A stretch of 64,000 nt of DNA from Pristiophorus japonicus (taxonomy: Eukaryota), in assembly GCF_044704955.1 (NCBI RefSeq), contig NC_092003.1, positions 7,006,001 through 7,070,000 of the forward strand, written 5' to 3'. The notes under the pieces are model-generated. The model was not told the DNA's origin, did no database searches, and saw nothing but the letters and a program-made list of their open reading frames with translations. A program made the position numbers and the translations under genes. How positions within the stretch are numbered: position 1 is the stretch's first letter; every line of letters starts with the position of its first letter. Below are positions 6,610-57,760 of this stretch, in pieces.

Positions 6610-7200
6610 AGTCTCGCCTCTAAGTGTTTGTGGGATCAAGTCCCACTCCAGCGACTTGAGCACGTAAATCTAGGCGGACACTCCAGTGCGGTGCTGAGGG
6701 AGCGCCGCACTGTCGGAGGGGCGGTGCTGAGGGAGCGCCGCACTGTCGGAGGGGCGGTGCTGAGGGAGCGCCGCACTGTCGGAGGGGCGGTGCTGAGGGA
6801 GCGCCGCACTGTCGGAGGGGCGGTGCTGAGGGAGCGCCGCACTGTCGGAGGGGCGGTGCTGAGGGAGCGCCGTACTGTCGGAGGTGCTGTCTTTCGGATG
6901 AGACAGTAAACCGAGGCCCCTCATGTGGACACAAAAGATCCCACGGCCATTATTTCGAAGACGAGTTCTCCCCGGTGTCCTGGGGCCAATACTGATCCCT
7001 CGATCAACATCTAAAACAAATGATCTGGGTCTTTATCACATTGCTGTCTGTGGGAGCTTGCTGTGTGCAAATTGGCTGCTGCGTTTCCTGCAGTACAACA
7101 GTGGCCACACTTCAAAAAGTACTTCATTGGCTGTAAGGCGCTTTGGGACGTCCGGTGGTCGTGAAAGGCGTTACGTAAATGCAAGTCTGTCCTTCTTTTC
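6610..7200 (+). mobile_element. Deu-domain SINE with ~6 x 33-bp internal repeat
   Basis: Head remnant, array at 6690-6885, Deu core and tail. Confidence 0.8.
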
Positions 7201-10769: not shown

Positions 10770-11878
10770 TGACTTGGATTTATATAGCGCCTTTCACGAC
10801 CACCAGATGTCTCAAAGCGCTTTACAGCCAATGAAGTACTTTTGGAGTGTAGTCACTGTTGTAATGTGGGAAATGCGACAGCCATTTTGCGCACAGCAAG
10901 CTCCCACACACAGCGATATGTTAACGAGCATAAAGTTTTCGTTATGTTGAATGAGGGATAAATATTGGCCAGGACAGCGGGGAGAACTCCCCTGCTCTTC
11001 TTCGAAATAGTGCCGTGCGATCTTTTACGTCCACCTGAGAGCAGACAGGACCTCGGTTTAACGTCTCATCCGAAAGACAGCCCCTCCAACAGTGTGGCAC
11101 TCCCTCAGCACTGCCCCTCCGACAATGCAGCCGTCCTTCAATACTGCCCCTCCGACAGTGCGGCACTCCCTCAGTACTGCCCCTCCGACAGTGCGGCGCT
11201 CCCTCAGTACTGCCCCTCCGACAGTGCGGCGCTCCCTCAGTACTGCCCCTCCGACAGTGCGGCACTCCCTCAGCATCAGCCCCCCGACAGTGCGGCACTC
11301 CCTCAGTACTGCCCCTCCGACAGCGCAGTACGGCGCTCCCTCAGTACTGCCCCTCCGACAGCGCAGTACGGCGCTCCCTCAGTACTGCCCCTCCGACAGC
11401 GCAGTACGGCGCTCCCTCAGTACTGCCCCTCCGACAGCGCAGTACGGCGCTCCCTCAGCACTGCCCCTCCAGACAGCGCAGTACGGCGCTCCCTCAGCAC
11501 TGCCCCTCCGACAGCGCAGTACGGCGCTCCCTCAGCACTGCCCCTCCAGACAGCGCAGTACGGCGCTCCCTCAGTACTGCCCCTCCGACAGCGCAGTACG
11601 GCGCTCCCTCAGTACTGCCCCTCCGACAGCGCAGTACGGCGCTCCCTCAGTACTGCCCCTCCGACAGCGCAGTACGGCGCTCCCTCAGTACTGCCCCTCC
11701 GACAGCGCAGTACGGCGCTCCCTCAGTACTGCCCCTCTGACAGCGCAGTACGGCGCTCCCTCAGTACTGCCCCTCCCTCTGGGAGCGGCAGCCTAGGTTT
11801 ATGTGCTCGAGTCCCTGGAGTGGGATGTGAACTCTCAACCTCGTGACTCAGAGGCTGTCCACTGAGCCACAGCTGACT
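10770..11878 (-). mobile_element. Deu-domain SINE with 33-bp and variant 38-bp internal arrays
   Basis: Reverse complement of the full SINE: tail at 10770, core, array at 11080-11780, tRNA head ending GAGCCACAGCTGAC at ~11878. Confidence 0.8.
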
Positions 11879-15455: not shown

Positions 15456-15461
15456 TTTATT
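15456..15461 (-). other. Candidate polyadenylation signal of the - strand RBM paralog
   Basis: TTTATT on + (AATAAA on -), ~185 nt downstream of the TAA stop at 15646. Confidence 0.45.
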
Positions 15462-15645: not shown

Positions 15646-18443
15646 TTACACCATAGAGGCGCAGAAGCTGGCATCTTGCTTGGGAGGTACGTAGTAGCGT
15701 GGGGCACGACTGAGCAAGTGCATCTGAATGTTCGCCTCTGGCCGAACAGCCGGAGAGAGAGAGGGCATGCGCGACAGACCAAATCGGGCACCCTGTCCAA
15801 GGCCGGGTGTATGTAGCAGAGCGGACTGAACGCTTCCTCTTGCCGCGGGTGTGTGCAACAGAGAGAGGCGGCCCCGGTCTTGCACGGCGGGCGGGGTTAA
15901 CAAACCGGAGCGGGCGCCTTCCGCCAGGGCATGCTTATTTAACAGAGCCAACTGGGCGATCTCGGCCATGCCGGGTGTGTTTAACAGTCTGGATCGGGAA
16001 CGTTCCCCTGGGACGGGCGTGCTTAACAGTCCGGATCGGGAATGTTCCCTCGGGATGGGTGTGTTGAACAGAGTGGATTGGGTATGTTCCCCCATGCCTG
16101 GTGTGCTTAACAGTCCGGATTGGACATGTCCTCCCATGGCCGGCGTATTTAACAGCCCCCACAGCGGACGCTCTCCCAGGATGGGTGTGTTCAACAGACC
16201 AGACCGGACACTCTCTCCCGGGGTGGATTTATATAAAAGAGTTGATCGGGCATTCTCTCCCAGGGCCTGTTTATCGGATAGACCAGATCGGACAATCTCT
16301 CCCGGAGTGGGTTTATTCAACAGACCAGATGGGACATGTCCTCCCATGCCGGGTGGATCTAGCAGTCCGGATCGGGGACTATCGCCCCTGCTGGGTGTAT
16401 TTAACAGTCTGGATCGCCCATGTCCTCCCAGGGCTTGTGTATTTAACAGACCAGATCGGACAATCTCTCCCGCGGTGGGTTTATTTAACAGTCCGGATCG
16501 GGGACCATCGCCCATGCCGGGTGTATTTAACAGTCCGGATCGGGCATGTCCTCCCAGGGTGGGTGGGTTTAACAGTCCGGTCCGGACACGCTCCCCCAGG
16601 GTGGGTGGGTTTAACAGGCCAGATTGGGCATGTCCTCCCAGGGTGGGTGGGTTTAACAGTCCGGTCCGGACACACTCCCACAGGGTGGGTGGGTTTAACA
16701 GGCCGGATTGGGCATGTCCTCCCAGGGCAGGTGGGTTTAACAGTCCGGATCGGGGACCATCGCCCATGCCGGGTGTATTTAACAGTCCGGATCGGGCATG
16801 TCCTCCCAGGGCGGGTGGGTTTAACAGAGCTGATCGGGCATGTTCCCCCAGGGCAGGTGTATTTAGAAGTCCGGATCGGACGTGCTGTGCCAGGGTGGAT
16901 GTTTTTGGCAGTCCGGATTGAGCATGTTCCTCTAGGCCGGGTGTATTTAACAGAGCAGATCGGGCATGTTGTCCCAGGGCGGGTGTATGTAGCAGTCCAG
17001 ATCGGGCATGTGCTCCCAGGGCGGGTGTATGTAGCAGAGCGGATTGAACACTTCCTCTCGCCGCAGCTGTGTGCAACAGAGCAAGGCGGCCCCTGTCTTG
17101 CACGGTGGGCGGGTTTAACAAACCGGAGCGGGCGCCTTCCCCCAGGGCGTGCTTATTTAACAGAGCCAACTGGGCGCTCTCTGCCATGCCGGGTGTGTTT
17201 AACAGTCCGCTTCGGGAATGTTCTCCCATGCCGGGGGCGTTTAACAGTCCGGATCGGGAGCCCTCCCCTAGGGTGGGAGAGTTCAACAAACCGGATCGGG
17301 AACCATCTCCCAGGATGGGCGAGTTTAACAGTCCGGATCGAGAACTTCCCCCCATGCCAGGTATGTTTAACAATCCGGATCGGGAACCTCCCCCCATGCC
17401 AGGATTGTTCAACAGTCCGGATCGGGAACCTCCCCCCGTGCCAGGATTGTTCAACAGTCCGGATCGGGAACCTCCCCCCGTGCCAGGATTGTTCAACAGT
17501 CCGGATCGGGAACCTCCCCCCGTGCCAGGATTGTTCAACAGTCCGGATCGGGAAACTCCCCCCGTGCCAGGATTGTTCAACAGTCCGGATCGGGAAACTC
17601 CACCCGTGCCAGGATTGTTCAACAGTCCGGATCGGGAACCTCCCCCCATGCCAGGTATGTTTAACAATCCGGATCGGGAACCTCCCCCCATGCCAGGTAT
17701 GTTTAACAAACTGGATTGTGGATGCTCCCCCAGGATGGATGTGCTTAACAATCCGGATCGGGAATGTTCTCCCAGGGTGGGTGTATTTAATAGTCCGGAT
17801 TGTGGATGTTCCCCTAGGAGGGATGTGTTTAACAGTCCGGATCGGGAATGTTCCCCCAGGGCGGGCGTGTTTAACAATCCAGGTCGGGCCCTTTTGTCGA
17901 CGGCGTGATTATCCTGCGCCATTTTTCTCTTGACAGGTATTCGGTTTTCCAGCTTGGGTGCAGGAGACGGCGAGAGGCGCTGGCGACGGTACAGGGACGT
18001 GCTTTTGGAGAGGCCTGGCGGCAAGCGACGGTGGGGCGGGCTGCTCGTGTACGGGTTGCGGGCGGATTCGGGCCGAGGGCAAAGCGGAGGCTGGGGCCTG
18101 CGCCGGAGTGCAAGCTGAGGCTGGAGCGGTAACTGCTCGTAATGATCGACATACTGCTCGGTCGCACTGGCAGGTTTATAATGCGGGCGGCAGAGAGGGT
18201 AACTCGAAGCTGCGGGGCCATACCTATCGAGGGAACCGTATGGAGCCCAGAAGCATTCGGCTGCCTGGTGGCCGGGTCTTCCGCAGCGCTGGCAATTTCC
18301 CACAGGACCGCCGGCCGATTGTGGCTTGGTGCTTTTCCCGGATAGCTGGTCCCCAATCTTCCTTGCCTTGACGTCAGTGGACTCCGTCTTGCTAATGGCT
18401 TTCAGCGCTTCCTCCTTGTGCTCCACGTGTACAAAGGCAGAGT
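15646..18443 (-). CDS. Exon 2 (terminal coding exon) of a diverged RBM4/RBM14-family paralog: half-RRM remnant, CCHC zinc knuckle, ~50 x 14-aa repeat
   Basis: Acceptor TCTCCTCTCTCAACAG|AC TCT GCC TTT gives (D)SAFVHVEHKEEALKAI, aligning to (D)YAFVHMEREEDAVTAI of the + gene in the same phase 1. CQRCGRPGHQAAEC at 18294-18253; LYRRQRLSP vs LYERTRLSP; 2798 nt open to TAA. Confidence 0.8.
15770..17886 (-). repeat. Coding 42-bp tandem repeat (~50 units; 14-aa consensus RSGLLNTPG/xM/LGE/GH/G)
   Basis: 42-nt periodicity (e.g. AGGATTGTTCAACAGTCCGGATCGGGAACCTCCCCCCGTGCC); frame maintained throughout. Confidence 0.9.
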
Positions 18444-18514
18444 CTGTTGAGAGAGGAGAAGCAGAATGAAGCAAGTGGGCACAAAGTGCGCGTGGTACGG
18501 AGCCAAAGTTTGAT

Positions 18515-19162
18515 CCGGAGGGGCAGTGCTGAGGGGTGCCGCGCTGTCGGAGGGGCAGTACCGAGGGAGTGCCGCACTGTCGGAGGGGCAGTACTGAGGG
18601 AGTGCCGTACTGTCGGAGGGGCAGTGCTGAGGGAGCGCCGTACTGTCGGAGGGGCAGTACTGAGGGAGCGCCGCACTGTCGGAGGGGCAGTACCGAGGGA
18701 GCGCCGCACTGTCGGAGGGGCAGTACTGAGGGAGCCCCGCACTGTCGGAGGGGCAGTACTGAGGGAGTGCCGCACTGTCGGAGGGGCAGTACCGAGGGAG
18801 CGCCGCACTGTCGGAGGGGCCGTACTGTCGGAGGGGCCGTACTGTCGGAGGGGCCGTACTGAGGGAGCGCCGCACTGTCGGAGGGGCAGTACCGAGGGAG
18901 TGCCGCACTGTCGGAGGGGCGGTATTGAGGGAGCGCCGCACTGTCGGAGGGGCAGTACTGAGGGAGCGCCGCACTGTCGGAGGGGCAGTACTGAGGGAGT
19001 GCCGCACTGTCGGAGGGGCGGTACTGAGGGAGCCCCGCACTGTCGGAGGGGCAGTACTGAGGGAGCGCCGCACTGTCGGAGGGGCCATCTCTCTGATGAG
19101 ACGTTAAATCGAGGCGCCATCTGCTCTCTCAGGTGGACGTAAATGGCCCCCATGGCACTATG
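18515..19162 (+). mobile_element. Deu-domain SINE fragment with 33-bp array, filling the paralog's intron
   Basis: Array at 18515-19085, then Deu core start GATGAGACGTTAAATCGAGG...AGGTGGACGTAAA...CATGGCACTA. Confidence 0.8.
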
Positions 19163-19267
19163 ACCTTGTTGCTATGGACACGAGGGGCCCGGTTGCCATG
19201 AAGCAATAGCGGCCGCCCGTGACGTCACCAGAAAGCCCTCACCGGGCGGGGCCGGTCGACCTCTCAC

Positions 19268-19496
19268 CTTTGGCGTCGGCGCAGTCGGTCGCGGGGCCGG
19301 AGTGGGCCTGCGGCTCCTGGCTGCCGCCTGGCGCCACGCTGTCGGCGCAGAGCGGCGCGGCGGCCTCGGGTCGGCCCTGCAGCTCGCTGCGACGCGGCGT
19401 CTCCTCCGTGGGCGTCAAGCCGTCGTGCTTGACCGCGCCGCAGGCTTCCGAGGTGTCGGCGGCGGCGGCGGCGGCGGCGGAGGAGGAGGCCGACAT
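19268..19496 (-). CDS. Exon 1 of the diverged RBM paralog (collapsed RRM1/RRM2 remnant)
   Basis: ATG at 19496; 229 nt (phase 1) ending GCC AAA G|GTGAGA. Residual similarity: SELQGR ~ YELHGQ, SVAPGGSQE ~ NLAPGCSNQE, DCADAK| ~ ECDIVK|. Splices in frame to 18443. Confidence 0.7.
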
Positions 19497-20113
19497 GTTT
19501 GTTCTGTCTCTCTCTCTCTCTTCGCGCGAAACACCTTCGCTCCCCTTCGGGCTTCGCGAGAGAGAAAAAAAGGAAACGCGCCCTCCTCACAAAATGGCCG
19601 CTTTTGGGGAGCGACAGCCGGCTCCACCAATCACATCCGCGCGGCGCAATAGCGCCATCCAATCAGGGGCCGCCTTCCGCCGGGGGCTTTCGGAGTGCCG
19701 CCTTTCCCAATTCCCAACCGCGTCCGCCGCCGGAGCGACAGCCGGCTGCACCAATCGCGGCGGCAAAGGCGCCATCCAATCGGGAGCCGTTGCGCGTGGT
19801 CGGAGAAGTCCCGCCTCCCTCGGAGGGGGGGGGGCCGGCAAGTCGATGGGGCGGGGCTCCGCGCGCGGGGGGGATAGGGGGATACGTGCGTGGCGATTGG
19901 CTGTACGTGATGAGCGGGGGGGCGGGAGCACGGCGCTGATTGGCCGGTGGCGCTGTCATTTAAAGGAAGAGAGCAAGGGGGCGCCCCGCCTCTTCATCTC
20001 GGCTGGCCGAACGAGGGGGAAGCGACGGGCGCCATTTTGTGAAGCGGGAGGAAAAAAGAAAAAGCAGCGCGGAGCGGGAGCGGGAAAAACGACCCAAGGA
20101 AAAGGACAGGACG
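19497..20113. promoter_or_regulatory. Bidirectional CpG-island promoter between the two RBM-family genes
   Basis: 617 bp between divergent ATGs; CCAAT at ~19627, 19659, 19707, 19751, 19776; ATTGG at ~19896, 19939; GC box GGGGCGGGG at ~19847; outward-facing YY1-like motifs AAAATGGCCG (~19590) and CGCCATTTT (~20030). Confidence 0.75.
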
Positions 20114-20444
20114 ATGAAGATCTTCGTGGGCAACATCGCGACGGAGGGCACGGCGGACGAGCTGCGCACGCTGTTCGAGTATTACGGCGCGGTGCGCGAG
20201 TGCGACATCATCCGCCATTACGGCTTCGTGCACATGGACAGCGCCGAGGAGGCGGGCCGCGCCATCCAGGCGCTGCACCAGTACGAGCTGCACGGCCAGA
20301 AGCTGAACGTGGCCGAGTCGCGGGCCCGGCCGGCCGCCGTCACCAAGGTCTACGTCGGCAACCTGGCGCCCGGCTGCAGCAACCAGGAGCTGCGCGCCAA
20401 GTTCGAGGAGCACGGCCGGGTGGTGGAGTGCGACATCGTCAAAG
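20114..20444 (+). CDS. RBM4: RNA-binding protein 4/14 family, coding exon 1 (RRM1 and N-half of RRM2)
   Basis: MKIFVGNI...ECDIIRHYGFVHM...TKVYVGNLAPGCSNQELRAKFEEHGRVVECDIVK, donor G|GTGTGT. The RRMs are RBM4-like; the start and intron position are RBM14-like, so the symbol is provisional. Confidence 0.9.
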
Positions 20445-21460
20445 GTGTGTGTGTGTGTGTGGGGAGAATGGGTGCCCCCGTGTGTGTGTGGTGGGTGGGG
20501 GGGGGGGGGGGTTGTGTGTGGGTGCCCCCGTGTGTGGGGGGGGAGAATGGGTGCCCCCGTGTGTGTGTGGTGGGGGGGGGGGGTTTGTGTGTGGGTGCCC
20601 CCGTGTGTGTGTGGTGGGGGGGGGGGGTTTGTGTGTGGGTGCCCCCGTGTGTGTGTGGTGGGGGGGGGGGGTTTGTGTGTGGGTGCCCCCGTGTGTGGGG
20701 GGGGAGAATGGGTGCCCCCGTGTGTGTGTGGTGGGGGGGGGTTTGTGTGTGGGTGCCCCCGTGTGTGGGGGGGGAGAATGGGTGCCCCCGTGTGTGGGGG
20801 GGAGAATGGGTGCCCCCGTGTGGGGGGGGGGGGAGAATGGGTGCCCCCGTGTGTGTGTATGGGGGGGGGGAATGGTTACCCCCGTGTGTGTGTATGGGGG
20901 GGGGAATGGTTACCCCCGTGTGTGTGTATGGGGGGGGGAATGGTTACCCCCGTGTGTGTGTATGGGGGGGGGGATGGGTACCCCCGTGTGTGTATATGGG
21001 GGGGGGGATGGGTACCCCCGTGTGTGTATATGGGGGGGGGGATGGGTACCCCTGTGTGTGTATGGGGGGGGGAATGGGTACCCCCGTGTGTGTATATGGG
21101 GGGGGGGGAATGGGTACCCCTGTGCGTGTGTGGGGGGGGTGAATGGGTACACCCGTGCGTGTATGGGGGGGGGGAATGGGTGCCCCCATGTGTGTGGGGG
21201 GGAGAATGGGTACACCCGTGCGTGTATGGGGGGGGGGGGGGATGGGTGCCCCCGTGAGTGTGGGGGGGGGTGGATGGGTTCCCCCGTGAGTGTGGGGTGG
21301 GGGGGTTAGGTGCCCCCGTGTGTGTGGGGGGGAGAATGGGTGCCCCCGTGTGTGTGGGGGGGGAGATGGGTGCCCCCGTGTGTGTGGGGGGGGAGATGGG
21401 TGCCCCCGTGCGTGTGGGGGGGGAGGTGAGTGCCCCCGTGTGTGTGGGGGGTGGGGTCCT
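20445..21460 (+). repeat. G/T-rich ~30-45-bp minisatellite at the start of RBM intron 1
   Basis: Repeats of ATGGGTGCCCCCGTGTGTGT(G)n; G-runs of 7-16 nt. Confidence 0.9.
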
Positions 21461-22029
21461 ACAGTAGCCCATTCAGCCCCTCTAGTCTGTTCTGTATAGT
21501 GACAGGATGCCATTCAGACCCTCTCGCCTTGTTTTTGAGGCTTCCTGTGTTTGAGTCCAGTGATGTAGTTTCACTTCCATACATTCTGGGCTTAATAGTT
21601 CTCTATTGTTCTGGTAACTCAATCACTGATTGAGGAGGTCACTTTGCCTGACAATGGGCTCCATTAGCCCACCTCCTGTTGGCCATTGTCATTCCACACT
21701 CCCTGCCCATCGTTCTAAGTCCAACATGGAGCCGCACCTGGGCCCCTCACACAAACAGCTTCCAGCTTTCTTTGGTGAGAAAAATATTAAACTCAATGTC
21801 CAATAAATCCTTGGGGGTCTGATGCTTCCAGTCCTTACACAGCATCAGGATGAAGTAATCGGGGTTTTCCCCAAGTCAGTCAGGTGATGTTCTTGGGGGG
21901 CCAATGGAAGAAAGGCAGATTTCGTTTCTGCGTAGTGCTAACGCGCTGAAAATTGGTCTATACCCGTGTGGTGCAGACAGAAGACATTTTCCCCCCCCCC
22001 TCGGAAGGTTTATGAGCGCTGTATAATCA

Positions 22030-22345
22030 TTATCATAGGCAGTCCCTCGAAATCGAGGAACACTTGCTTCCACTCTAAAAGTGAGTCCTTAGCTGACTGA
22101 ACAGCCAATACGAGAGCCACAGTCCCTGTCACAGGTGGGACAGACAGTGGTCGAGGGAAGGGGAGGGTGGGACTGGTTTGCCACACGCCCCTTCCGCTGC
22201 CTGCGCTTGGTTTCTGCACGCTCTCGGCGACGAGACTCGAGGAGCTCAGCGCCCTCCCGGATGCATTTCCTCCACTTGGGGCGGACTGGTCTTTGGCCAG
22301 GGACTCCCAGGTGTCGGTGGGGAATATTGCACTTTTTCAGGGAGG
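22030..22345 (-). mobile_element. RTE-clade LINE 3' fragment
   Basis: Minus strand encodes WRKCIREGAE.LESRRRERAETKR...VCPTCDRDCGSRIG.. (C-terminal zinc-finger region), then the tail CGAGGGACTGCCTATGATAATG. Confidence 0.7.
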
Positions 22346-22470
22346 GGTGTCCCTTGTAATGTTTCCTCTGCCCACCTTTTGGCTCGTTTGCCGTGGTATT
22401 GGGTATTTTTTAAGTGTGGCTTTGGTTAACGTGAGATGTAAACTCTACCATTCTCCCCCACCCCTTGCAG

Positions 22471-22969
22471 ACTACGCCTTTGTGCACATGGAGAGAGAGG
22501 AGGACGCGGTGACCGCCATCGCCAACCTGGACGACAAGGAATTCAACGGCAACCGCATCCGGGTGCAGCTCTCCCGCTCCACCTACGGCAAGTCCTCTGG
22601 GCAGCGGGAGGTGTGCCAGCGCTGCGGGCGACAGGGCCACCAGGCACGCGACTGCCACTCGGCGCGGCACAACCAGTACAGCCAGTACCAGTTGCCCTCG
22701 CAGTACTACCCCTCCTACTACTCCTACTGCGAGTACGACTACGGCCACAGCTCCTACTACGACTATTACGACGACTACCAGCAGGCCGGCGCCGCCGTCG
22801 GCTACGCGCCGCTCGACTACGCCCGCGAGAGGAGCCCCAACCGCCTGAGCGCGCCCGCTGCAGCTGCCGCCGGCGCCAACAGCGGCACCCTGTACGAGCG
22901 CACCCGCCTCTCGCCGCTCTCCGTGCCAAAGTATCAAAACGAGAAATTCATAGACGATAGCATCAGTAG
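22471..22969 (+). CDS. RBM4: RNA-binding protein 4/14 family, coding exon 2 (C-half of RRM2, CCHC knuckle, Tyr-rich low-complexity region)
   Basis: Acceptor CCCCTTGCAG|AC TAC GCC gives (D)YAFVHMEREEDAV; CQRCGRQGHQARDC at 22614-22655; RERSP and YERTRLSP; donor AG|GTATGT (phase 2). Confidence 0.9.
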
Positions 22970-24829: not shown

Positions 24830-25722
24830 CAGACTTGACTATTCCAACGCACTCCTGGCCGGCCTCCCACCTTTTGCCCGGCGTAAATTAGAGGTGATCC
24901 AAAACTCGGCTGCCTCTGTGTCCTAACTCACACCGAGTCCCGCTCACCCATCACCCCCTGTGCTCACTGCCCCCGTGTCCTAACTCGCACCGAGTCCCAC
25001 TCACCCATCACCCCCTGTGCTCACTGCCCCCGTGTCCTAACTCACACCGAGTCCCGCTCACCCATCACCCCCTGTGCTCACTGCCCCCGTGTCCTAACTC
25101 GCACCGAGTCCCGCTCACCCATCACCCCCTGTGCTCACTGCCCCCGTGTCCTAACTCGCACCGAGTCCCGCTCACCCATCACCCCCTGTGCTCACTGCCC
25201 CCGTGTCCTAACTCACACCGAGTCCCACTCACCCATCACCCCCTGTGCTCACTGCCCCCGTGTCCTAACTCACACCGAGTCCCACTCACCCATCACCCCC
25301 TGTGCTCGCTAACCTACATTGGTTCCGGTTAAACTGCCTCGATTTCAAAATTTTCATCCTTGTTTACAAATCCCTCCATGGCCCTCGCCCCTCCCTATCT
25401 CTGTAATCTCCTCCAGCCCCATAACCCCCCGAGATCTCTGCGCTCCTCTAATTCTGGCCCCCTGAGCATCCCTGATTATAATCGCTCCACCATCGGTGGC
25501 CGTGCCTTCTGTTGCCTGGGCCCCAAGCTCTGGAACTCCCTCCCTAAACCTCTCCGCCTCTCTCTCCTCCTTCAAGACGCTCCTTAAAACCTACCTCTGC
25601 TTTTGGTCACCTGCCCTAATTTCTCCTTCTGTGGCTCGGTGTCAGTTTTTGTTAATGTAACGCTCCTGTGAAGCGCCGTTGGATGTTCTCTGTTAAAGGT
25701 GCTATATAAATACAGGTTGTTA
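24830..25722 (+). mobile_element. L2-type LINE 3' end with internal 57-bp minisatellite (~24915-25310)
   Basis: RLDYSNALLAGLP...LEVIQNSAA [RVLTRTESRSPITP]n ...LHW...FKI.ILVYKSLHG.APPYLCNLL, and tail GCTATATAAATACA.GTTGTT. Confidence 0.75.
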
Positions 25723-26239: not shown

Positions 26240-27200
26240 TTCCTGGTGTCATTTGATCCTGAAATGAGCTTCCAGCCACATGTCTGCAGCATAACTAAGA
26301 CCGCCTATTTCCACCAAAGTAACATCACCCTGTCTCTGCTCCTGCCCCAGCTTATCCGCTGCTGAAACTCTCATCCGTGCTTTTGTTACTTCTAGACTTG
26401 ACTATTCCAACACACTCCTGGCTGGCCTCTCGCATTCTACCCTCCGTAACCTAGAGGTGATCCAAAACTTGACTGCCATGTGTCCTAACTAGCACCGAGT
26501 CCTGCTCACCCATCACCCACTGCGCTTGCTGCCCCGTGTCCTAACTAGCACCGAGTCCTGCTCACCCATCACCCACTGCGCTTGCTGCCCCGTGTCCTAA
26601 CTCTCACCCAGTCCCGCTCACCCATCACCCACTGCGCTTGCTGCCCCGTGTCCTAACTCGCACCGAGTCCCGCTCACCCATCACCCCCTGTGCTCGCTGC
26701 CCCCGGGCCCTAACTCGCACCCAGTCCCGCTCACCCATCACCCCCTGTGCTCGCTGCCCCGTGTCCTAACTCTCGCCCATCACCCCCCTGTGCTCACTGA
26801 CCTACATTGGCTCCCTGTTAAACACCACCTCGATTTCAAAATTCTCATCCTTGTTCACAAATCCCTCCATGGCCCTCGCTCCCCCCTATCTCTGTAATCT
26901 CCTCCAGCCCCACAACCCCCCCGAGATGTCTGCGCTCCTCTAATTCTGCCCCCTTGAGCATCCCTGACTATAGTCGCTCCACCATCAGTGGCCATGCCTT
27001 CTGTTGCCTGGGCCCCAAGCTCTAGAACTCCTTCCTTAAACCTCTCCGCCTCTTTCCTCCAAGATGCTCCTTAAAAATTTATGGTCACCTACCCTAATTT
27101 CTCCTTATGTGGCTTGATGTCAACTGTCTTGTCTCATGAATCTCCTGTGAAGCGCCTTGGGGTGTTTCTCCATGTTAAAGGCGCTATATAAATACAAGTT
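26240..27200 (+). mobile_element. L2-type LINE 3' end with internal 56/57-bp minisatellite
   Basis: FDPEMSFQPHVCSITKTAYFH...RLDYSN..., same structure as 24830-25722. Confidence 0.75.
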
Positions 27201-29445: not shown

Positions 29446-29645
29446 NNNNNNNNNNNNNNNNNNNNNNNNNNNNNNNNNNNNNNNNNNNNNNNNNNNNNNN
29501 NNNNNNNNNNNNNNNNNNNNNNNNNNNNNNNNNNNNNNNNNNNNNNNNNNNNNNNNNNNNNNNNNNNNNNNNNNNNNNNNNNNNNNNNNNNNNNNNNNNN
29601 NNNNNNNNNNNNNNNNNNNNNNNNNNNNNNNNNNNNNNNNNNNNN
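29446..29645. other. Assembly gap (200 N)
   Basis: Run of n characters. Confidence 1.
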
Positions 29646-33384: not shown

Positions 33385-36300
33385 GAGCAAAAAGGGAGGG
33401 TGAACAGCCAGTTGTCGTGGTGCACATTGGTACCAACGATATAGGTTAAAAAAGGGATGAGGTCCTACAAGACGAATTTAAGGAGCTAGGAGCTAAATTA
33501 AAACGTAGGACCTCAAAAGTAGTAATCTCAGGATTGCTTCCAGTGCCACGTGCTAGTCAGAGTAGGAATCGCAGGATAGCTCAGATGAATACGTGGTGCA
33601 GCAGGGAGGGATTCAAATTCCTGGGGCATTGGAACCGGTTCTGGGGGAGGTGGGACCAGTACAAACCGGATGGTCTTCACCAAGGCAGGACCGGAACCAA
33701 TGTCCTAGGGGGAAGTGTTTGCTAGTGCTGTTGGGGAGGAGTTAAACTAATATGGCAGGGGGATGGGAACCAATGCAGGGAGACAGAGGGAAACAAAAAG
33801 GAGACAAAAGCAAAAGACAGCAAGGAGATGAGTAAAAGTGGAGGGCAGAGAAACCCAAGGCAAAAAAAGGGCCACTGAATATAAAGGGGCTGCAGGAGGG
33901 ATCAAAACTAAAAATCATGGTTTAAAAACTAGTATTAAAACACTCTACCTAAACGCACGCAGCATTCAAATAAAGTAAATGAGTTGATGGCACAAATCAT
34001 TACAAATGGGTATGATTTGGTGGCCATTACAGAAACGTGGTTGCAGGGTGGCCAAGACTGGGAATTAAACATACAGGGGTATCTGACGATTCGGAAAGAT
34101 AGACAAGAAGGGAAAGGAGGTGGGGTAGCTCTGTTAATAAAGGATGATATCAGGGCAGTTGTGAGAGATGATATTGGCTCTAATGAACAAAATGTTCAAT
34201 CATTGTGGGTGGAGATTAGAGATAGTAAGGGGAAAAAGTCACTGGTGGGTGTAGTTTATAGGCCCCCAAATAATAACTTCACGGTGGGGAGGGCAATAAT
34301 CAAGGGAATAATGGAGGCATGTGAAAAAGGAACGGCAGTAATCATGGGGGATTTTAACCTACATATCGATTGGTCAAATCAAATCGCAAGGGGTAGCCTT
34401 GAGGAGGAATTCATAGAATGCATACAGGATTGTTTCTTAGAACAGTATGTTACAGAACCTACAAGGGAGCAAGCTATCTTAGATCTGGTCCTGTGTAATG
34501 AGACAGGAATAATAAACGATCTCCTAGTAAAAGATCCTCTCGGAATGAGTGATCACAGTATGGTTGAATTTGTAATACAGATTGAGGGTGAGGAAGTAGT
34601 GTCTCAAACGAGCGTACTATGCTTAAACAAAGGGGACTACAGTGAGATGAGGGCAGAGTTGGCTAAAGTAGACTGGAAACACAGACTAAACGGTGGCACA
34701 ATTGAGGAACAGTGGAGGACTTTTAAGGAGCTCTTTCATAGTGCTCAACAAAAATATATTCCAGTGAAAAAGAAGGGCGGTAAGAGAAGGGATAACCAGC
34801 CGTGGATAACCAAGGAAATAAAGGAGAGTATCAAATTAAAAACTAATGCGTATAAGATGGCCAAGGTTAGTAGGAAAATAGAAGATTGGGAAAATTTTAA
34901 ACAACAGCAAAGAATGACTAAGAAAGCAATAAAGAAAGGAAAGATAGAATACGAAAGTAAACTTGCGCAAAACATAAAAACGGATAGTAAAAGCTTTTAC
35001 AGATATATAAAACGGAAAAGAGTGACTAAAGTAAATGTTGGTCCCTTAGAAGATGAGAAGGGGGATTTAATAATGGGAAATGTGGAAATGGCTGAGACCT
35101 TAAACAATTATTTTGCTTCGGTCTTCACAGTGGAAGACACAAAAACCATGCCAAAAATTGCTGGTCACAGGAATGTGGGAAGGGAGGACCTTGAGACAAT
35201 CACTATCACTAGTGGGGTAGTGCTGGACAGGCTAATGGGACTCAAGGTAGACAAGTCCCCTGGTCCCGATGAAATGCATCCCAGGGTATTAAGAGATGGC
35301 GGAAGTTATAGCAGATGCATTCGTTATAATCTACCAAAATTCTCTGGACTCTGGAGAGGTACCAGCGGATTGGAAAGCAGCTAATGTAACGCCTCTGTTT
35401 AAAAAAGGGGGCAGACAAAAGATAGGTAACTATAGGCCGGTTAGTTTAACATCTGTAGTGGGGAAAATGCTTGAAACTATCATTAAGGAAGAAATAGCGG
35501 GACATCTAGATAGGAATAGTGCAATCAAGCAGACACAGCATGGATTCATGAAGAGGAAATCATGTTTAACTAATTTACTGGAATTCTTTGAGGATATAAC
35601 GAGTATGGTGGATAGAGGTGTACCGATGGATGTGGTGTATTTAGATTTTCAAAAGGCATTCGATAAGGTGCCATACAAAAGGTTACTGCAGAAGATAAAG
35701 GTACGCGGAGTCAGAGGAAATGTATTAGCATGGATCGAGAATTGGCTGGCGAACAAAAAGCAGAGAGTCGGGATAAATGGGTCCTTTTCGGGTTGGAAAT
35801 CGGTGGTTAGTGGTGTGCCACAGGGATCGGTGCTGGGACCACAACTGTTTACAGTATACATAGATGACCTGGAAGAGGGGACAGAGTGTAGTGTAACAAA
35901 ATTTGCAGATGACACAAAGATTAGTGGAAAAGCGGGTTGTGTAGAGGACACAGAGAGGCTGCAAAGAGATTTAGATAGGTTAAGCGAATGGCTAACGTTT
36001 GGCAGACGGAATACAATGTCGGAAAGTGTAAAGTCATCCACCTTGGGGGAAAAAAACAGTAAAAGGGAATATTATTTGAATGGGGATAAATTACAACATG
36101 CTGCGGTGCAGAGGGACCTGGGAGTCCTTGTGAATGAAACTCTTTATCCCAAAAAGTTAGTTTGCAGGTACAGCAGGTAATCAGGAAGGCGAATGGAATG
36201 TTGGCCTTCATTGCGAGAGGGATGGAGTACAAAAGCAGGGAGGTCCTGCTGCAACTGTACAGGGTATTGGTGAGGCCGCACCTGGAGTACTGCGTGCAGT

Positions 36301-36838
36301 TTTGGTCACCTTTCTTAAGGAAGGATATACTGGCTTTGGAGGGGGTACAGAGACGATTCACGAGGCTGATTCCGGAGATAAGGGGGTTACCTTATGATAG
36401 ATTGAGTACACTGGGTCTTTACTCGTTGGAGTTCAGAAGAATGAGGGGTGATCTTACAGAAACATTTAAAATAATGAAAGGGATAGACAAGATAGAGGCA
36501 GAGAGGTTGTTTCCACTGGTCAGGGAGACTAGAACTCGGGGGCACAGCCTCAAAATACGGGGGAGCCAATTTAAAACCGAGTTGAGAAGGAATTTCTTCT
36601 CCCAGAGGGTTGTGAATCTGTGGAATTCTCTGCCCAAGGAAGCAGTTGAGGCTAGCTCATTGAATGTATTCAAGTCACAGATAGATAGATTTTTAACCAA
36701 TAAGGGAATTAAGGGTTACGGGGAGCGGGCGGGTAAGTGGAGCTGAGTCCACGGCCAGATCAGCCATGATCTTGTTGAATGGCGGAGCAGGCTCGAGGGG
36801 CTAGATGGCCTGCTCCTGTTCCGAATTCTTATGTTCCT
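33385..36838 (+). mobile_element. Near-full-length, 5'-truncated CR1 LINE (ORF1 esterase remnant + frameshifted ORF2 + 3' UTR)
   Basis: ORF1 SGNH-like VVVHIGTNDIG at ~33410; APE endonuclease motifs (AITETW, GVVYRPP, MGDFN, ILDLVL, SDH); RT motifs (YLDFQKAFDKV, GVPQGSVLGP, KFADD); frameshifts near 35290 and 36000-36160. Confidence 0.93.
33984..36746 (+). pseudogene. CR1 ORF2 (endonuclease-reverse transcriptase), disrupted into three ORFs
   Basis: ORFs 33984-35384, 35296-36180 and 36162-36746 are consecutive pieces of one pol protein in different frames. Confidence 0.88.
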
Positions 36839-38909: not shown

Positions 38910-39393
38910 GAAAGAAAAATTTGCATTTATATAGCGCCTTTCACGATCACCAGACGTCTCAAAGCGCTTTACAGCCAATTAAGTACTTTTGGAGTGTGGT
39001 CACTGCTGTAATGTGGGAAACACCAATTTGCGCACAGCAAGCTCCCACACACAGCACTGTGATAATGACCCGGATCATCTGTTTTTTTGTTACATTGATT
39101 GAGGGATAAATATTGGTCCCAGGACACCGGGGAGAACTCCCCCTGCTCTTCTTCGAAATAGTGGCCGTGGGATCTTTTACGTTCACCTGAGAGGGCAGAC
39201 GGGACCTCGGTTTAACGTCTCATTTGAAAGACAGCCCATCCGACAGTGCGGCGCTCCCTCAGTACTGCCCCTCTGACAGTGCGGCGTTCCCTCAGTACTA
39301 CCTCTCCGACAGTGCCCTGCTCCCTCAGTACTGCCCCTCCGACAGTGCAGCGCTCCCTCAGTACTGCCCCTCCGACAGTGCGGCACTCCCTCA
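38910..39393 (-). mobile_element. Deu-domain SINE with ~5 x 33-bp repeat, inserted in an L2 3' fragment
   Basis: Reverse-complement tail, core and array; - strand L2 tail sequence on both sides (~38635-38900, 39394-39480). Confidence 0.75.
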
Positions 39394-39586
39394 GGGGTGG
39401 AGGAGGTTACAGAGATGGGAAGGAACGAGGCTACAGATGGACTTGAGCAAGAGGATGCAAATTTTAGGATTGCAGTTTTGGGGGTGGGGGGTAGCGGAGG
39501 GTGCAGTTCATACATTAATTCCCAACAGCAGCAAGGAAGGAAAGGGCTTTTTTTTTAAACACCTGAAAGCTAATGCTCACAAAAAA

Positions 39587-41064
39587 CTACTGAGGGAGCG
39601 CCGCACTGTCGGAGGGGCGGTACTGAGGGAGTGCCGCACTGTCGGAGGGGCAGTACTGAGGGAGTGCCGCACTGTCGGAGGGGCAGTACTGAGGGAGTGC
39701 CGCACTGTCGGAGGGGCAGTACTGAGGGAGCGCCGCACTGTCGGAGGGGCGGTACTGAGGGAGTGCCGCACTGTCGGAGGGGCAGTACTGAGGGAGCACC
39801 GCACTGTCAGAGGGGCGGTACTGAGGGAGCGCCGCACTGTCGGAGGGGCAGTACTGAGGGAGCGCCGCACTGTCGGAGGGGCGGTACTGAGGGAGTGCCG
39901 CACTGTCGGAGGGGCAGTACTGAGGGAGCGGCGCACTGTCGGAGGGTCAGTACTGAGGGAGCGCCGCACTGTCGGAGGGGCAGTACTGAGGGAGCGCCGC
40001 ACTGTCGGAGGGACAGTACTGAGGGAGCGCCGCACTGTCGGAGGGGCGGTGCTGAGGGAGTGCCGCACTGTCGGAGGGGCGGTGCTGAGGGAGTGCCGCA
40101 CTGTCGGAGGGGCAGTACTGAGGGAGCACCGCACTGTCGGAGGGGCGGTACTGAGGGAGCGCCGCACTGTCGGAGGGGCAGTACTGAGGGAGCGCCGCAC
40201 TGTCGGAGGGACAGTACTGAGGGAGCGCCGCACTGTCGGAGGGGCGGTGCTGAGGGAGTGCCGCACTGTCGGAGGGGCGGTGCTGAGGGAGTGCCGCACT
40301 GTCGGAGGGGCAGTACTGAGGGAGCACCGCACTGTCGGAGGGGCGGTACTAAGGGAGCGCCGCACTGTCGGAGGGACGGTACTGAGGGAGTGCCGCACTG
40401 TCGGAGGGATGTACTGAGGGAGCGCCGCACTGTCGGAGGGGCAGTACTGAGGGAGCACCGCACTGTCGGAGGGGCGGTACTGAGGGAGCGCCGCACTGTC
40501 GGAGGGACAGTACTGAGGGAGCACCGCACTGTCGGAGGGGCAGTACTGAGGGAGCGCCGCACTGTCAGAGGGACAGTACTGAGGGAGCGCCGCACTGTCG
40601 GAGGGGCGGTGCTGAGGGAGTGCCGCACTGTCGGAGGGGCGGTGCTGAGGGAGTGCCGCACTGTCGGAGGGGCAGTACTGAGGGAGCACCGCACTGTCGG
40701 AGGGGCGGTACTGAGGGAGCGCCGCACTGTCGGAGGGACGGTACTGAGGGAGTGCCGCACTGTCGGAGGGATGTACTGAGGGAGCGCCGCACTGTCGGAG
40801 GGGCAGTACTGAGGGAGCGCCGCACTGTCGGAGGGGCGGTGCTGAGGGAGTGCTGCACTGTCGGAGGGGCAGTACTGAGGGAGCACCGCACTGTCGGAGG
40901 GGCAGTACTGAGGGAGCGCCGCACTGTCGGAGGGGCGGTACTGAGGGAGCACCGCACTGTCGGAGGGGCAATACTGAGGGAGCGCCGCACTGTCGGAGGG
41001 GCGGTACTGAGGGAGCACCGTACTGTCAGAGGGGCGGTACTGAGGGAGCGCCGCATTGTCGGAG
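39587..41064 (+). repeat. SINE-derived 33-bp minisatellite (~45 units)
   Basis: Tandem GAGGGAGYGCCGCACTGTCGGAGGGGCRGTACT. Confidence 0.95.
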
Positions 41065-41189
41065 GTGCCGTCTCCCAGGTGACACATTAATCTGAGGTCC
41101 TCTCGGATGGATGTAAAAAGATCCCTTGGCCACTATTGGAAGAAGACCAGAGAGAGGTGTGCTGGGCCAATATTTATCCCTCCACCAAG

Positions 41190-41392
41190 TGTCGTGTGTG
41201 TACATGCTGTTTGTAGCCACCAGATGGCGTCATTGTTGGAGGCCACTGAACAGCACGCACGTGCTGCTGCTCTGGTATAAAAGGCCAGCGATTTGGTGAG
41301 TCAGGCACTTTGGGTCGTAATAAAGCAGAGCCAAGGGTGTACCTTGTTCAGTTAAACAGCACTCAGTTTGAACCTTTATTGCGTACATAACA
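41190..41392 (+). mobile_element. Solo LTR with CTCF-like motif, inserted in a Deu SINE (further copies start at 43642, 45230, 47158)
   Basis: TGTCGTG...CATAACA ends; imperfect TSD CCAAG/CCAAC; TATAAAA and AATAAA; CCACCAGATGGCGTC at 41217. Confidence 0.7.
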
Positions 41393-41840
41393 CCAACATC
41401 GCTAAAACAGATGATGCATTCTCATTATCACAGGGCTGTTTGTGGGAGCTTGCTGTGCGCAAATTGGCCGCCGCCTTTCCTACATTACAACAGCGACGAC
41501 ACTTAAGTACTTGATCACTTTGGGACACCATGAAACGGGCTAATTAAAGCAAAACCTTTTACATTAAAAAAAATCTCAATTGTACCTTATATATAAACTA
41601 ACATTGAATGCCGACCGTACAAATATAAAATGACACTTCAACAGTTTATGCTGTTGTGTTTCAGTAGTAATATATATATATATATATATATGCACCCGGG
41701 GGTGAAATAAATTGCTTGGCAGTGGGTGGGGATAATGTCGCTTTAAAAATGGTCTTCAATTAAAGGCAAACTGAGAGACAAGAGCTGGAAGGGTTTCGGT
41801 TCCGGGTTAGCTGGGGGAAAGTTCAATTCGCTGATTAAAC

Positions 41841-41879
41841 ATGGCAGCTACAAGGAGCCCAGATAGCAGCAGCAGTAAG
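41841..41879 (+). CDS. CCS: Putative CCS coding exon 1, copy 1 (MAATRSPDSSSSK)
   Basis: AAACATGG Kozak context; 39 nt, phase 0; donor AAG|GTATGG; in frame with exon 2; same coding length as I recall for mammalian CCS exon 1. Confidence 0.55.
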
Positions 41880-44288
41880 GTATGGGCTATCCTCGGGCAC
41901 GATAAAGTGCTTATCTGTATCCCTTGCTGCATAGTTTACAATGCATGTGCTTTTGCAAACAGGAAAGTACAATTAAAAGCACATTCCGTGTTTGATCGAG
42001 TCTAGAATTGAATTGCTTGCTCTTTGTCACTTTCTGTTTCTGCTGTGCCTCTGTTTTCAACACAATCGGCCTCTTGTCTCTCGAGTTCCTTTTTGTTTTC
42101 ATTACCGTGGTTTTAGCAAGGTAGAAAAACAATTTCAAGCCCCATATCTGCCACCGGGGCAGCCGGTTGTTACTCAGTCGTTGGGCTTTTCTGTGAAATT
42201 CTGGGGCTTTCGAATGTTTTCTGTGGAATTGTGACGAGTCATGGTTTGCACAAGGTGGCCCAGCTGATACGGATACAGCCAGCTCGTGTTAACAGACTTG
42301 AGCGCGATAATCCAGGCCGACACGTCCCACTGCAGTGCTGAGGGAGCGCCACACTGTCGGAGGGGCAGTACTGAGGGAGGGCCACACTGTCAGAAGGGCG
42401 GTACTGAGGGAGTGCCGCACTGTCGGAGGGGCAGTACTGAGGGAGTGCCGCACTGTCGGAGGGGCAGTACTGAGGGAGGGCCACACTGTCGGAGGGGCGG
42501 TACTGAGGGAGCGCCGCACTGTCGGAGGGGCAGTACTGAGGGAGTGCCGCACTGTCGGAGGGGCAGTACTGAGGGAGTGCCGCACTGTCGGAGGGGCGGT
42601 ACTGAGGGAGCACCGCACTGTCGGAGGGGCGGTACTGCGGGAGCGCCGCACTGTCGGAGGGGCGGTACTGAGGGAGCGCCGCACTGTCGGAGGTGCGGTA
42701 CTGAGGGAGCGCCGCACTGTCGGAGGGGCGGTACTGAGGGAGCGCCGCACTGTCGGAGGGGCAGTACTGAGGGAGCGCCGCACTGTCGGAGGGACAGTAC
42801 TGAGGGAGTGCCGCACTGTCGGAGGGGCAGTACTGAGGGAGCGGCGCACTGTCGGAGGGACAGTACTGAGGGAGCACCGCACTGTCGGAGGGGCAGTACT
42901 GAGGGAGCGCCGCACTGTCGGAGGGGCGGTACTGAGGGAGCGCCGCACTGTCGGAGGGACAGTACTGAGGGAGCACCGCACTGTCGGAGGGGCAGTACTG
43001 AGGGAGCGCCGCACTGTCAGAGGGACAGTACTGAGGGAGCGCCGCACTGTCGGAGGGGCGGTGCTGAGGGAGTGCCGCACTGTCGGAGGGGCGGTGCTGA
43101 GGGAGTGCCGCACTGTCGGAGGGGCAGTACTGAGGGAGCACCGCACTGTCGGAGGGGCGGTACTGAGGGAGCGCCGCACTGTCGGAGGGACGGTACTGAG
43201 GGAGTGCCGCACTGTCGGAGGGATGTACTGAGGGAGCGCCGCACTGTCGGAGGGGCGGTACTGAGGGAGCGCCGCACTGTCGGAGGGGCGGTGCTGAGGG
43301 AGTGCTGCACTGTCGGAGGGGCAGTACTGAGGGAGCACCGCACTGTCGGAGGGGCAGTACTGAGGGAGCGCCGCACTGTCGGAGGGGCGGTACTGAGGGA
43401 GCACCGCACTGTCGGAGGGGCAATACTGAGGGAGCGCCGCACTGTCGGAGGGGCGGTACTGAGGGAGCACCGTACTGTCAGAGGGGCGGTACTGAGGGAG
43501 CGCCGCATTGTCGGAGGTGCCGTCTCCCAGGTGACACATTAATCTGAGGTCCTCTCGGATGGATGTAAAAAGATCCCTTGGCCACTATTGGAAGAAGACC
43601 AGAGAGAGGTGTGCTGGGCCAATATTTATCCCTCCACCAAGTGTCGTGTGTGTACATGCTGTTTGTAGCCACCAGATGGCGTCATTGTTGGAGGCCACTG
43701 AACAGCACGCACGTGCTGCTGCTCTGGTATAAAAGGCCAGCGATTTGGTGAGTCAGGCACTTTGGGTCGTAATAAAGCAGAGCCAAGGGTGTACCTTGTT
43801 CAGTTAAACAGCACTCAGTTTGAACCTTTATTGCGTACATAACACCAACATCGCTAAAACAGATGATGCATTCTCATTATCACAGGGCTGTTTGTGGGAG
43901 CTTGCTGTGCGCAAATTGGCCGCCGCCTTTCCTACATTACAACAGCGACGACACTTAAGTACTTGATCACTTTGGGACACCATGAAACGGGCTAATTAAA
44001 GCAAAACCTTTTACATTAAAAAAAATTTCAATTGTACCTTATATATAAACTAACATTGAATGCCGACCGTACAAATATAAAATGACACTTCAACATTTTA
44101 TACTGTTGTGTTTCAGTAGTAATATATATATATATATATGCACCCGGGGGAGAAATAAATTGCTTGGCAGTGGGTGGGGATAATGTCGCTTTAAAAATGG
44201 TCTTCAATTAAAGGCAAACTGAGAGACAAGAGCTGGAAGGGTTTCGGTTCCGGGTTAGCTGGGGGAAAGTTCAATTCGCTGATTAAAC

Positions 44289-44327
44289 ATGGCAGCTACA
44301 AGGAGCCCAGATAGCAGCAGCAGTAAG
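44289..44327 (+). CDS. CCS: Putative CCS coding exon 1, copy 2
   Basis: Identical 39 nt and donor. Confidence 0.55.
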
Positions 44328-45882
44328 GTATGGGCTATCCTCGGGCACGATAAAGTGCTTATCTGTATCCCTTGCTGCATAGTTTACAATGCATGTGCTT
44401 TTGCAAACAGGAAAGTACAATTAAAAGCACATTCCGTGTTTGATCGAGTCTAGAATTGAATTGCTTGCTCTTTGTCACTTTCTGCTTCTGCTGTGCCTCT
44501 GTTTTCAACACAATCGGCCTCTTGTCTCTCGAGTTCCTTTTTGCTTTCATTACCGTGGTTTTAGCAAGGTAGATAAACAATTTCAAGCCCCATATCTGCC
44601 ACCGGGGCAGCCGGTTGTTACTCAGTCGTTGGGCTTTTCTGTGAAATTCTGGGGCTTTCGAATGTTTTCTGTGGAATTGTGACGAGTCATGGTTTGCACA
44701 AGGTGGCCCAGCTGATACGGATACAGCCAGCTCGTGTTAACAGACTTGAGCGCGATAATCCAGGCCGACACGCCCCACTGCAGTGCTGAGGGAGCGCCAC
44801 ACTGTCGGAGGGGCAGTACTGAGGGAGCGCCGCACTGTCGGAGGGATGTACTGAGGGAGGGCCACACTGTCGGAGGGGCGGTACTGCGGGAGCGCCGTAC
44901 TGTCGGAGGGATGTACTGAGGGAGCGCCGCACTGTCGGAGGGGCGGTACTGAGGGAGTGCCGCACTGTCGGAGGGATGTACTGAGGGAGCGCCGCACTGT
45001 CGGAGGGGCAGTACTGAGGGAGCGCCGCACTGTCGGAGGGGCGGTACTGAGGGAGCGCCGCACTGTCGGAGGGACGGTACTGAGGGAGTGCCGCACTGTT
45101 GGAGGTGCCGTCTACCAGGTGACACGTTAATCTGAGGCCCTCTCGGATGGATGTAAAACGATCCCTTGGCCACTATTGGAAGAAGACCAGAGAGAGGTGT
45201 GCTGGGCCAATATTTATCCCTCCACCAAGTGTCGTGTGTGTACATGCTGTTTGTAGCCACCAGATGGCGTCATTGTTGGAGGCCACTGAACAGCACGCAC
45301 ATGCTGCTGCTCTGGTATAAAAGGCCAGCGATTTGGTGAGTCAGGCACTTTGGGTCGTAATAAAGCAGAGCCAAGGGTGTACCTTGTTCAGTTATACAGC
45401 ACTCAGTTTGAACCTTTATTGCGTACATAACACCAACATCGCTAAAACAGATGATGCATTCTCATTATCACAGGGCTGTTTGTGGGAGCTTGCTGTGCGC
45501 AAATTGGCCGCCGCCTTTCCTACATTACAACAGCGACGACACTTAAGTACTTGATCACTTTGGGACACCATGAAACGGGGTAATTAAAGCAAAACCTTTT
45601 ACATTAAAAAAAATCTCAATTGTACCTTATATATAAACTAACATTGAATGCCGACCGTACAAATATAAAATGACACTTCAACATTTTATACTGTTGTGTT
45701 TCAGTAGTAATATATATATATATATATATATATGCACCCGGGGGAGAAATAAATTGCTTGGCAGTGGGTGGGGATAATGTCGCTTTAAAAATGGTCTTCA
45801 ATTAAAGGCAAACTGAGAGACAAGAGCTGGAAGGGTTTCGGTTCCGGGTTAGCTGGGGGAAAGTTCAATTCGCTGATTAAAC

Positions 45883-45921
45883 ATGGCAGCTACAAGGAGC
45901 CCAGATAGCAGCAGCAGTAAG
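45883..45921 (+). CDS. CCS: Putative CCS coding exon 1, copy 3
   Basis: Identical 39 nt and donor. Confidence 0.55.
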
Positions 45922-47806: not shown

Positions 47807-47845
47807 ATGGCAGCTACAAGGAGCCCAGATAGCAGCAGCAGTAAG
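47807..47845 (+). CDS. CCS: Putative CCS coding exon 1, copy 4 (closest to exon 2)
   Basis: Identical 39 nt and donor; 1265-nt intron to exon 2. Confidence 0.65.
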
Positions 47846-57741: not shown

Positions 57742-57760
57742 ACGTGCCATTTCCCTGTAG

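Follow-up and report, generated by a model that had tools for sequence, protein, structure and literature searches.

PRI-like heptapeptides in the 14-residue repeat of a shark RBM4 paralog are probably incidental to selection on another leucine pair

The PTB-Raver1-interaction (PRI) motif is defined by its binding to the dorsal face of PTB RRM2, which depends on Leu3 and Tyr247. Its original consensus of 2006, [S/G][I/L]LGxxP, was later refined to [S/G][I/L]LGx-Phi-P, in which position 6 is Pro, Val or Ala (Joshi et al., PMC3420021). According to that paper, the Pro6Ser substitution weakens binding 7-fold, a polar residue at position 6 is detrimental, an hnRNP L PRI with His6 is named as a low-affinity site, and weak PRI sites may contribute avidity, as raised in its discussion. 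Docking of leucines on the back of an RRM has also been described for SETD2. In that report, the two leucines of the SETD2 LLPTP motif fill pockets at the back of RRM2 in hnRNP L, the residues after the leucine pair wrap two tyrosines, binding uses a Pro located four residues past the first Leu, and no detectable binding of the LL peptide to PTB RRM2 is recorded (bioRxiv 2021.05.22.445248). Among the matches listed in searches of the full-text literature, SETD2 was the only described case of a GLL/LLxTP motif. RBM4, a vertebrate protein with two RRMs and a CCHC knuckle, has been reported as a PTB antagonist (PMC3087008), apparently via splicing and not by means of a docking motif of this kind.

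In a 64-kb window of the Pristiophorus japonicus genome (the whole stretch of DNA analysed here), a first-pass annotation had described two exact PRI motifs, SLLGEHP and SILGEHP, together with a near-match, PILGERP, in a repeat array that it regarded as a possible amplified PRI-like docking surface. All three heptapeptides were re-located at the positions claimed for them (Table 1), in a minus-strand frame uninterrupted from 18441 as far as its stop codon at 15646, and SLLGEHP and SILGEHP were the only matches to [SG][IL]LGxxP in the six frames of the window. The word "exact" holds for the 2006 consensus, with these two matches, but not for the refined consensus [SG][IL]LGx[AVP]P, to which the protein contains no match; His occupies position 6 in both heptapeptides and is the commonest residue of that column (19/50 units). 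Reading the xLGE register as an amplified form of the PRI was not upheld, as 46 of the 50 units depart from the loose consensus in that register at three or more positions.

Table 1. Positions of the features of the paralog, its neighbours and the surrounding repeats in the window
Feature	Position	Strand	Basis or remark
Exon 1, coding part (229 nt), decayed RRM1 and first half of RRM2, in frame	19268..19496	-	tblastn
Intron 1, GT..AG, holds 33-bp satellite at 18516-19085	18444..19267	-	RNA-like contigs join across
Exon 2 start, decayed second half of RRM2 and linker	18298..18443	-	homology to RBM4 exon 2
CCHC zinc knuckle, all four ligands	18253..18297	-	PF00098, 20.8 bits, at cut-off
Alternative 5' splice site (GT donor) in exon 2; use removes whole array	18222..18224	-	contigs, records
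SLYRRQRLSP...KLENR stretch, like end of RBM4 exon 2	17941..17997	-	invariant columns; RBM4 likeness by eye
KRK-x9-KRxRP, basic, just before array	17881..17931	-	basic clusters kept in 4/4 orthologs
Repeat array, 50 in-register units of 42 bp/14 aa with core (S)GLLNxP	15787..17886	-	TRF and register alignment
SLLGEHP	17803..17823	-	unit 2, columns 8-14; fits the loose PRI consensus, His6; outside refined consensus
SILGEHP	17719..17739	-	unit 4, columns 8-14; closest to unit 2
PILGERP	16165..16185	-	unit 41; positions 1 and 6 off consensus; best match to aligned zebra shark unit
C-terminal tail with HLLSxAPR, and stop	15646..15786	-	HLLSxAPR kept in 3/4 orthologs
AATAAA, ~185 nt past stop	15456..15461	-	sequence
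Downstream exon coding end, used by short isoform record P0003	6290..6314	-	record alignment
Intact RBM4, coding exons 20114-20444 and 22471-22967	20114..22967	+	head-to-head with paralog
Exon like copper chaperone CCS	54013-54150	-	sequence likeness
33-bp satellite family, arrays	1-597, 6688-6884, 11096-11776, 18516-19085, 39234-48658, 61451-61844		TRF
57-bp arrays	24910-25307, 26468-26772, 58855-59707, 62512-63365		TRF
68-bp array	55638-57747		TRF
Open frames, presumably LINE endonuclease/reverse transcriptase pieces	33939-36746, 50628-51377	+	
Open frame, presumably LINE endonuclease/reverse transcriptase piece	54294-55670	-	
N gap, 200 bases	29446-29645		

TRF counted 45.7 copies of the 42-bp repeat, and the block of units 17-20 appears again at 46-49. 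Leu occupies column 4 in 50/50 units and column 5 in 47/50, encoded by four and three synonymous codons, respectively, and Pro occupies column 8 in 41/50. Over all pairwise comparisons of the 46 distinct units, pN/pS was 0.09 at the leucine pair, 0.32 across the SGLLNxP columns and 1.12 across columns 9-14. On a 45-edge minimum spanning tree of the units, which reduces double counting of changes, the ratio was 0.08 at the leucine pair (22.5 synonymous and 3.5 non-synonymous changes; Fisher p 1.6e-8), 0.28 at the flanking S, G, N and P columns of SGLLNxP, 0.80 in columns 8-14, which hold the PRI register (p 0.12), and 0.93 in columns 9-14 (p 0.69); column 11, corresponding to PRI Gly4, is fairly constrained (pN 0.10, pS 0.38), and a column-averaged pN/pS is blind to selection on two particular units. 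Of the 46 distinct units, 43 keep the leucine pair. Neutral simulation (5000 runs) left the pair in 19 units on average and never in more than 32, a crude comparison in that a star phylogeny is assumed; none of these runs (0/5000) yielded a stop-free array, and the 46 real units contain no stop. Judged from these sequence patterns, purifying selection acts strongly on the GLLxxP register and the array is a selected protein feature. Its functional unit would be the first half of the repeat and not the PRI-bearing half, because the leucine pair is conserved (0.08 on the tree) and the PRI-bearing half shows no detectable constraint (pN/pS 0.8-1.1).

Four array-bearing orthologs were recovered (P0002, P0116, P0117 and P0118, all uncharacterized proteins); all are from carpet sharks and thus effectively represent one lineage, across the squalomorph/galeomorph split from the window species. 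Conservation of the two motifs, which the first-pass annotation had named as a check, was not found, since neither a loose nor a strict PRI match occurs in any of the four (0/4), and the unit aligned with the motif reads PILGGRF in three of them and HILAGRP in the other. The homolog searches returned no array-bearing squalomorph ortholog, the Heptranchias perlo record (P0005) being a short isoform. Because the orthologs are one lineage and no closer array-bearing form was at hand, recent selection on the motifs within the lineage of the window species is possible. A 931-aa exon-2 protein query found no homolog among 7999 candidates of 512-1630 aa, and the 10 of 113 matches examined in one homolog search comprised three of this paralog, one RBM4 and six unrelated repeat proteins. 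In the protein searches performed here, homologs of the paralog were found only in sharks.

The origin of the two matches can be followed within the array. Units 2 and 4 differ at 5/42 nt, every other unit being at least 8 nt from unit 2 and at least 10 nt from unit 4; three of the five differences are synonymous, the Leu/Ile change stays inside the consensus, and the block of units 1-2 is nearest to the block of units 3-4. As no other unit lies closer to either member of the pair, the matches of units 2 and 4 count as one event, and treatment of them as two independent events was rejected on the same ground. The probability of at least one loose match was 10.6% when residues were shuffled, 1.7% when columns were shuffled, 0.36% when columns were resampled without units 2 and 4, and ~1% under neutral mutation of the consensus unit. 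Under the nulls that keep the register, one loose match is an uncommon outcome and cannot be called trivial; these nulls disregard both the pre-existing xIL[GA]xRP unit type and the choice of one motif among many known. PILGERP of unit 41 is of this type, and one Pro-to-Ser change would give it the position 1 residue. The best-scoring partners of the aligned zebra shark unit are units 41, 4 and 2. Of the 50 units, 4 have Ser in place of Pro at column 8, each time encoded by TCC, a single substitution away from the common CCC. The unit type is old in part, as Ile-Leu is present in 4/4 aligned ortholog units, Gly in three and the final Pro in one. An older xILGxRP-type unit probably gained Ser at position 1 and was then duplicated once to leave two His6 copies, which would be at most weak PTB RRM2 binders.

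The reading preferred here, to which a probability of about 0.72 is assigned, is the joint claim that drift within the repeat produced the PRI matches incidentally and that selection acts on the other leucine pair. The register-keeping nulls stand against its incidental part, as they give only 0.4-1.7% for one loose match. The same values would favor units 2 and 4 being functional PRIs that recruit or sequester PTBP1/2 via RRM2, as would the twofold fit to the loose consensus, Glu5 as in PRI3 of Raver1 (PMC3420021), the constancy of both heptapeptides in three of three RNA-like samples and, weakly, the lack of a predicted fold around them. Set against this are His6, the lack of any strict match, their absence from all four array-bearing orthologs, descent from a single duplicated event, and no significant constraint on columns 8-14, so that functional PRIs appear very improbable. 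Units 2 and 4 should not be filed as PRIs, because two defining features, the refined consensus and ortholog conservation, were tested and neither was found; neither dedicated PTB-binding motifs nor conserved functional PRIs are supported. By itself, a PRI match of this kind has low value, as the consensus is short and the match fails both the published refinement and conservation.

By sequence, intron position and zinc knuckle, the gene that carries the array is a paralog of RBM4 with decayed RRMs. In tblastn, exon 1 showed 36% identity to the Heptranchias ortholog over 85 aa (E 5e-5) with in-frame deletions, and it ends in a phase-1 GT donor at a codon position identical to that of RBM4; the start of exon 2 showed 41% identity to RBM4 exon 2 over 73 aa (E 1e-14). 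Pfam RRM_1 had no match in either exon of the paralog, whereas RBM4 exon 2 has one. Descent from RBM4 is evident in these comparisons, but two intact RRMs were not found, as deletions and substitutions are present relative to P0005 and P0024, and the earlier suggestion of a paralog without RRMs of its own was borne out. The long protein is predicted to have 1008 aa. In the ESM Atlas, only leads below 0.9 pointed to RBM14/RBM4 clusters, with no usable match for residues 165-560. The KRK-x9-KRxRP stretch is taken here to be bipartite NLS-like, with a presumed function, and the AATAAA past the stop is likely, from its sequence context, to mark the end of the array-bearing mRNA. The intact RBM4 next to the paralog is the likely source of the duplicate; the start codons of the paralog (19496) and RBM4 (20114) are 618 bp apart, and the genes face away from each other. 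The interval between them (19497-20113) is GC-rich and holds several CCAAT-like words, which is likely a shared bidirectional promoter. No description of the paralog gene was found among the matches listed from the open full-text literature.

Three sequencing runs, representing three samples of one study, were taken as RNA-like because their contigs join across intron 1 and have no depth within it; a fourth run showed depth in just 4/30 bins. In all three RNA-like runs, a contig joins 18445 to exon 1, and contigs cover both heptapeptides with no other letters. Since the junction contig and the motif contig overlap by 30 bases, the contig graph is the basis for inferring that exon 1 runs on into the array. 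A loose contig end lies at 18224 in each of the three runs, and the records P0003, P0115 and P0005 all leave the exon 2 frame at this donor. Two of these, P0003 (RBM4B-like X3) and P0115 (RBM4.1-like X2), are short isoforms of Pristiophorus japonicus in which the array is skipped; P0003 agrees with the window in exon 1, in the shortened exon 2 and in the exon at 6314. The protein searches did not return the long, array-bearing form of the window gene. By contig depth, which is a rough measure, the skip junction reached 51 and 23 in the two runs that list both contigs, against 290 and 342 on the array side. At least two downstream exons are joined to the 18224 donor, namely the exon at 6314 and another outside the window (X2-type junction). 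The window gene and the Heptranchias record P0005 have this donor in common.

The array, the NLS-like motif and the tail are common to squalomorph and galeomorph sharks, with roughly 15 units in carpet sharks compared with 50 here. Both RRMs and the knuckle are intact in Heptranchias (P0005), whereas the window gene has decayed RRMs and a kept knuckle. In carpet sharks, the knuckle cysteines are lost and the records begin inside RRM2, through either loss or annotation. The RBM4 duplicate, found here only in sharks, thus lost different domains in each lineage and kept the leucine pair of its repeat. Domain decay of this kind, the satellite-rich surroundings and the array-skipping isoform records of Pristiophorus japonicus could be accommodated if the array were a minisatellite that merely happens to be read in frame within a degenerating gene copy and has no role as protein. 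This explanation is scarcely credible in view of the 46 distinct units without a stop, the low pN/pS at the leucine pair, the sharing of array, NLS-like motif and tail across both shark groups, and the greater depth of the array-side contigs than of the skip junction. A non-coding minisatellite was rejected because of the selection on the leucine pair, the stop-free units and the sharing across lineages.

For the selected leucine pair, a docking mechanism can be proposed. LLxxP occurs 40 times in the 50 units here and 7, 7, 5 and 5 times in the four orthologs; LLxTP occurs 17 times and LLNTP 11 times in the array, Asn follows the pair in 37/50 units, the residues before it are mostly R/Q-S-G, and exact LLPTP is absent from the array. 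AlphaFold2 returned a mean pLDDT of 42 with no helix or strand elements, a weak result as only five sequences were aligned; the residue composition of the array is compatible with disorder. The array may be a disordered nuclear scaffold that shows ~40 (S/G)LLxxP short motifs, each of which would lodge its two leucines in a shallow hydrophobic pocket on a partner, so that avidity could offset weak single sites, and the alternative donor at 18224 would switch the array off. The chances that the array works through a specific motif-partner mechanism are judged to be even. Of the earlier proposal of an amplified docking surface, the part that survives is the GLLxxP register and not the PRI-type xLGE half: because this register is under purifying selection in a paralog with decayed RRMs, a docking surface for some RRM protein is possible.

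As to the partner, the back face of hnRNP L/LL RRM2 is put forward tentatively, on the analogy with SETD2, and is itself rather unlikely; some other partner or generic self-association is about as likely. PTBP RRM2 ranks lower and is an improbable partner: hnRNP L/LL is the better candidate because the Gly-less LLPTP of SETD2 binds hnRNP L and not PTB RRM2. The corresponding PTB version, in which weak binding of PTBP RRM2 at many GLLxxP sites makes the array a sponge by avidity, would draw on the strong selection on the register, on the 37/50 units that depart from the loose consensus at just two positions when read as GLLNxP, and on the PRI positions 1, 2 and 3 and Pro6 that GLLNxP supplies, the last being a residue important for affinity (PMC3420021). 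However, no unit (0/50) matches the loose consensus in this register, Gly4 being mostly Asn with no Pro7. Moreover, the SETD2 LL peptide, which also lacks Gly4, gave no detectable PTB RRM2 binding (bioRxiv 2021.05.22.445248), and a leucine pair alone is described as insufficient for high affinity (PMC3420021). The sponge is accordingly improbable.

The leucine pairs could also act as hydrophobic stickers of a generic kind, which, in a disordered tail rich in Gly, Ser and Pro, would promote self-association or entry into condensates with no specific RRM partner. The array composition (G 18%, L 18%, S 11%, P 9%, with a net +24 over 700 residues), the range from roughly 15 to 50 units and, weakly, the lack of a predicted fold agree with such stickers, but the constraint on the flanking S, G, N and P columns and the invariance of Leu at column 4 would be better explained by a shaped pocket, and this alternative appears unlikely, though possible. 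In the fullest form of the docking proposal, a shark RBM4 duplicate turned from an RNA-binding into a protein-binding regulator: its RRMs were shed in at least one lineage, an array of up to ~40 selected LLxxP motifs would titrate or cluster hnRNP L/LL (or PTB-family) RRM2, and a donor shared with Heptranchias would switch the array on and off. This whole scenario is offered tentatively, as one that is unlikely to hold in all its parts. If it were true, the protein would serve naturally as a multivalent decoy, or as a scaffold, for a docking site of the SETD2/Raver1 type, and an array that docks on RRM back faces would provide a high-valency reagent for the LLxxP preferences of hnRNP L, hnRNP LL and PTB.

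Two further sequences touch on the repeat and the locus. The protein record P0026, at residues ~480-555, has a 14-residue repeat of its own with GLLAPPT and is otherwise unrelated, a possible convergence on a 14-aa GLLxxP unit; from its RFxV-like motifs, we presume it to resemble a WNK kinase tail. In mammals, the RBM14/RBM4 neighbourhood includes CCS, and the CCS-like exon of the window, which we presume to be CCS, would fit such a neighbourhood.

In comparison with vertebrate RBM4 (RRM-RRM-CCHC), the paralog has in common the intron position and phase, the CCHC knuckle and the stretch at the end of exon 2, and it differs in its decayed RRMs and in the 14-aa array, which RBM4 does not have. 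Its likeness to the PRIs of Raver1/Raver2 and Matrin3, as described in PMC3420021 and PMC4365034, consists of the two fits to [SG][IL]LGxxP and a nuclear RNA-processing context, in addition to the Glu5 of Raver1 PRI3. In contrast, high-affinity PRIs have Pro, Val or Ala at position 6, where the shark heptapeptides have His, as in the low-affinity hnRNP L PRI (PMC3420021); Matrin3 GILGPPP is reported to be invariant in 84 species (PMC4365034), whereas the shark motifs are not conserved; and the PRIs of Raver1/2 lie ~135 residues apart, whereas the shark pair lies 28 apart and is a repeat duplicate. The selected half of the unit is closer in form to the SETD2 SHI peptide, with which it has in common a leucine pair, a Pro four residues after the first Leu, often a Thr before that Pro, and no Gly after the pair (PMC8575775), the sequence xTP/xxP following the leucine pair in the array. 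Nevertheless, this likeness would span only a few residues: SETD2 has one site with Pro after the leucine pair and needs upstream residues, whereas the array has tens of copies with Asn after the pair and Ser-Gly before it, and the upstream Asn/Lys contacts and extended N-terminal segment of SETD2 (NAGKV before LL) are absent from its units.
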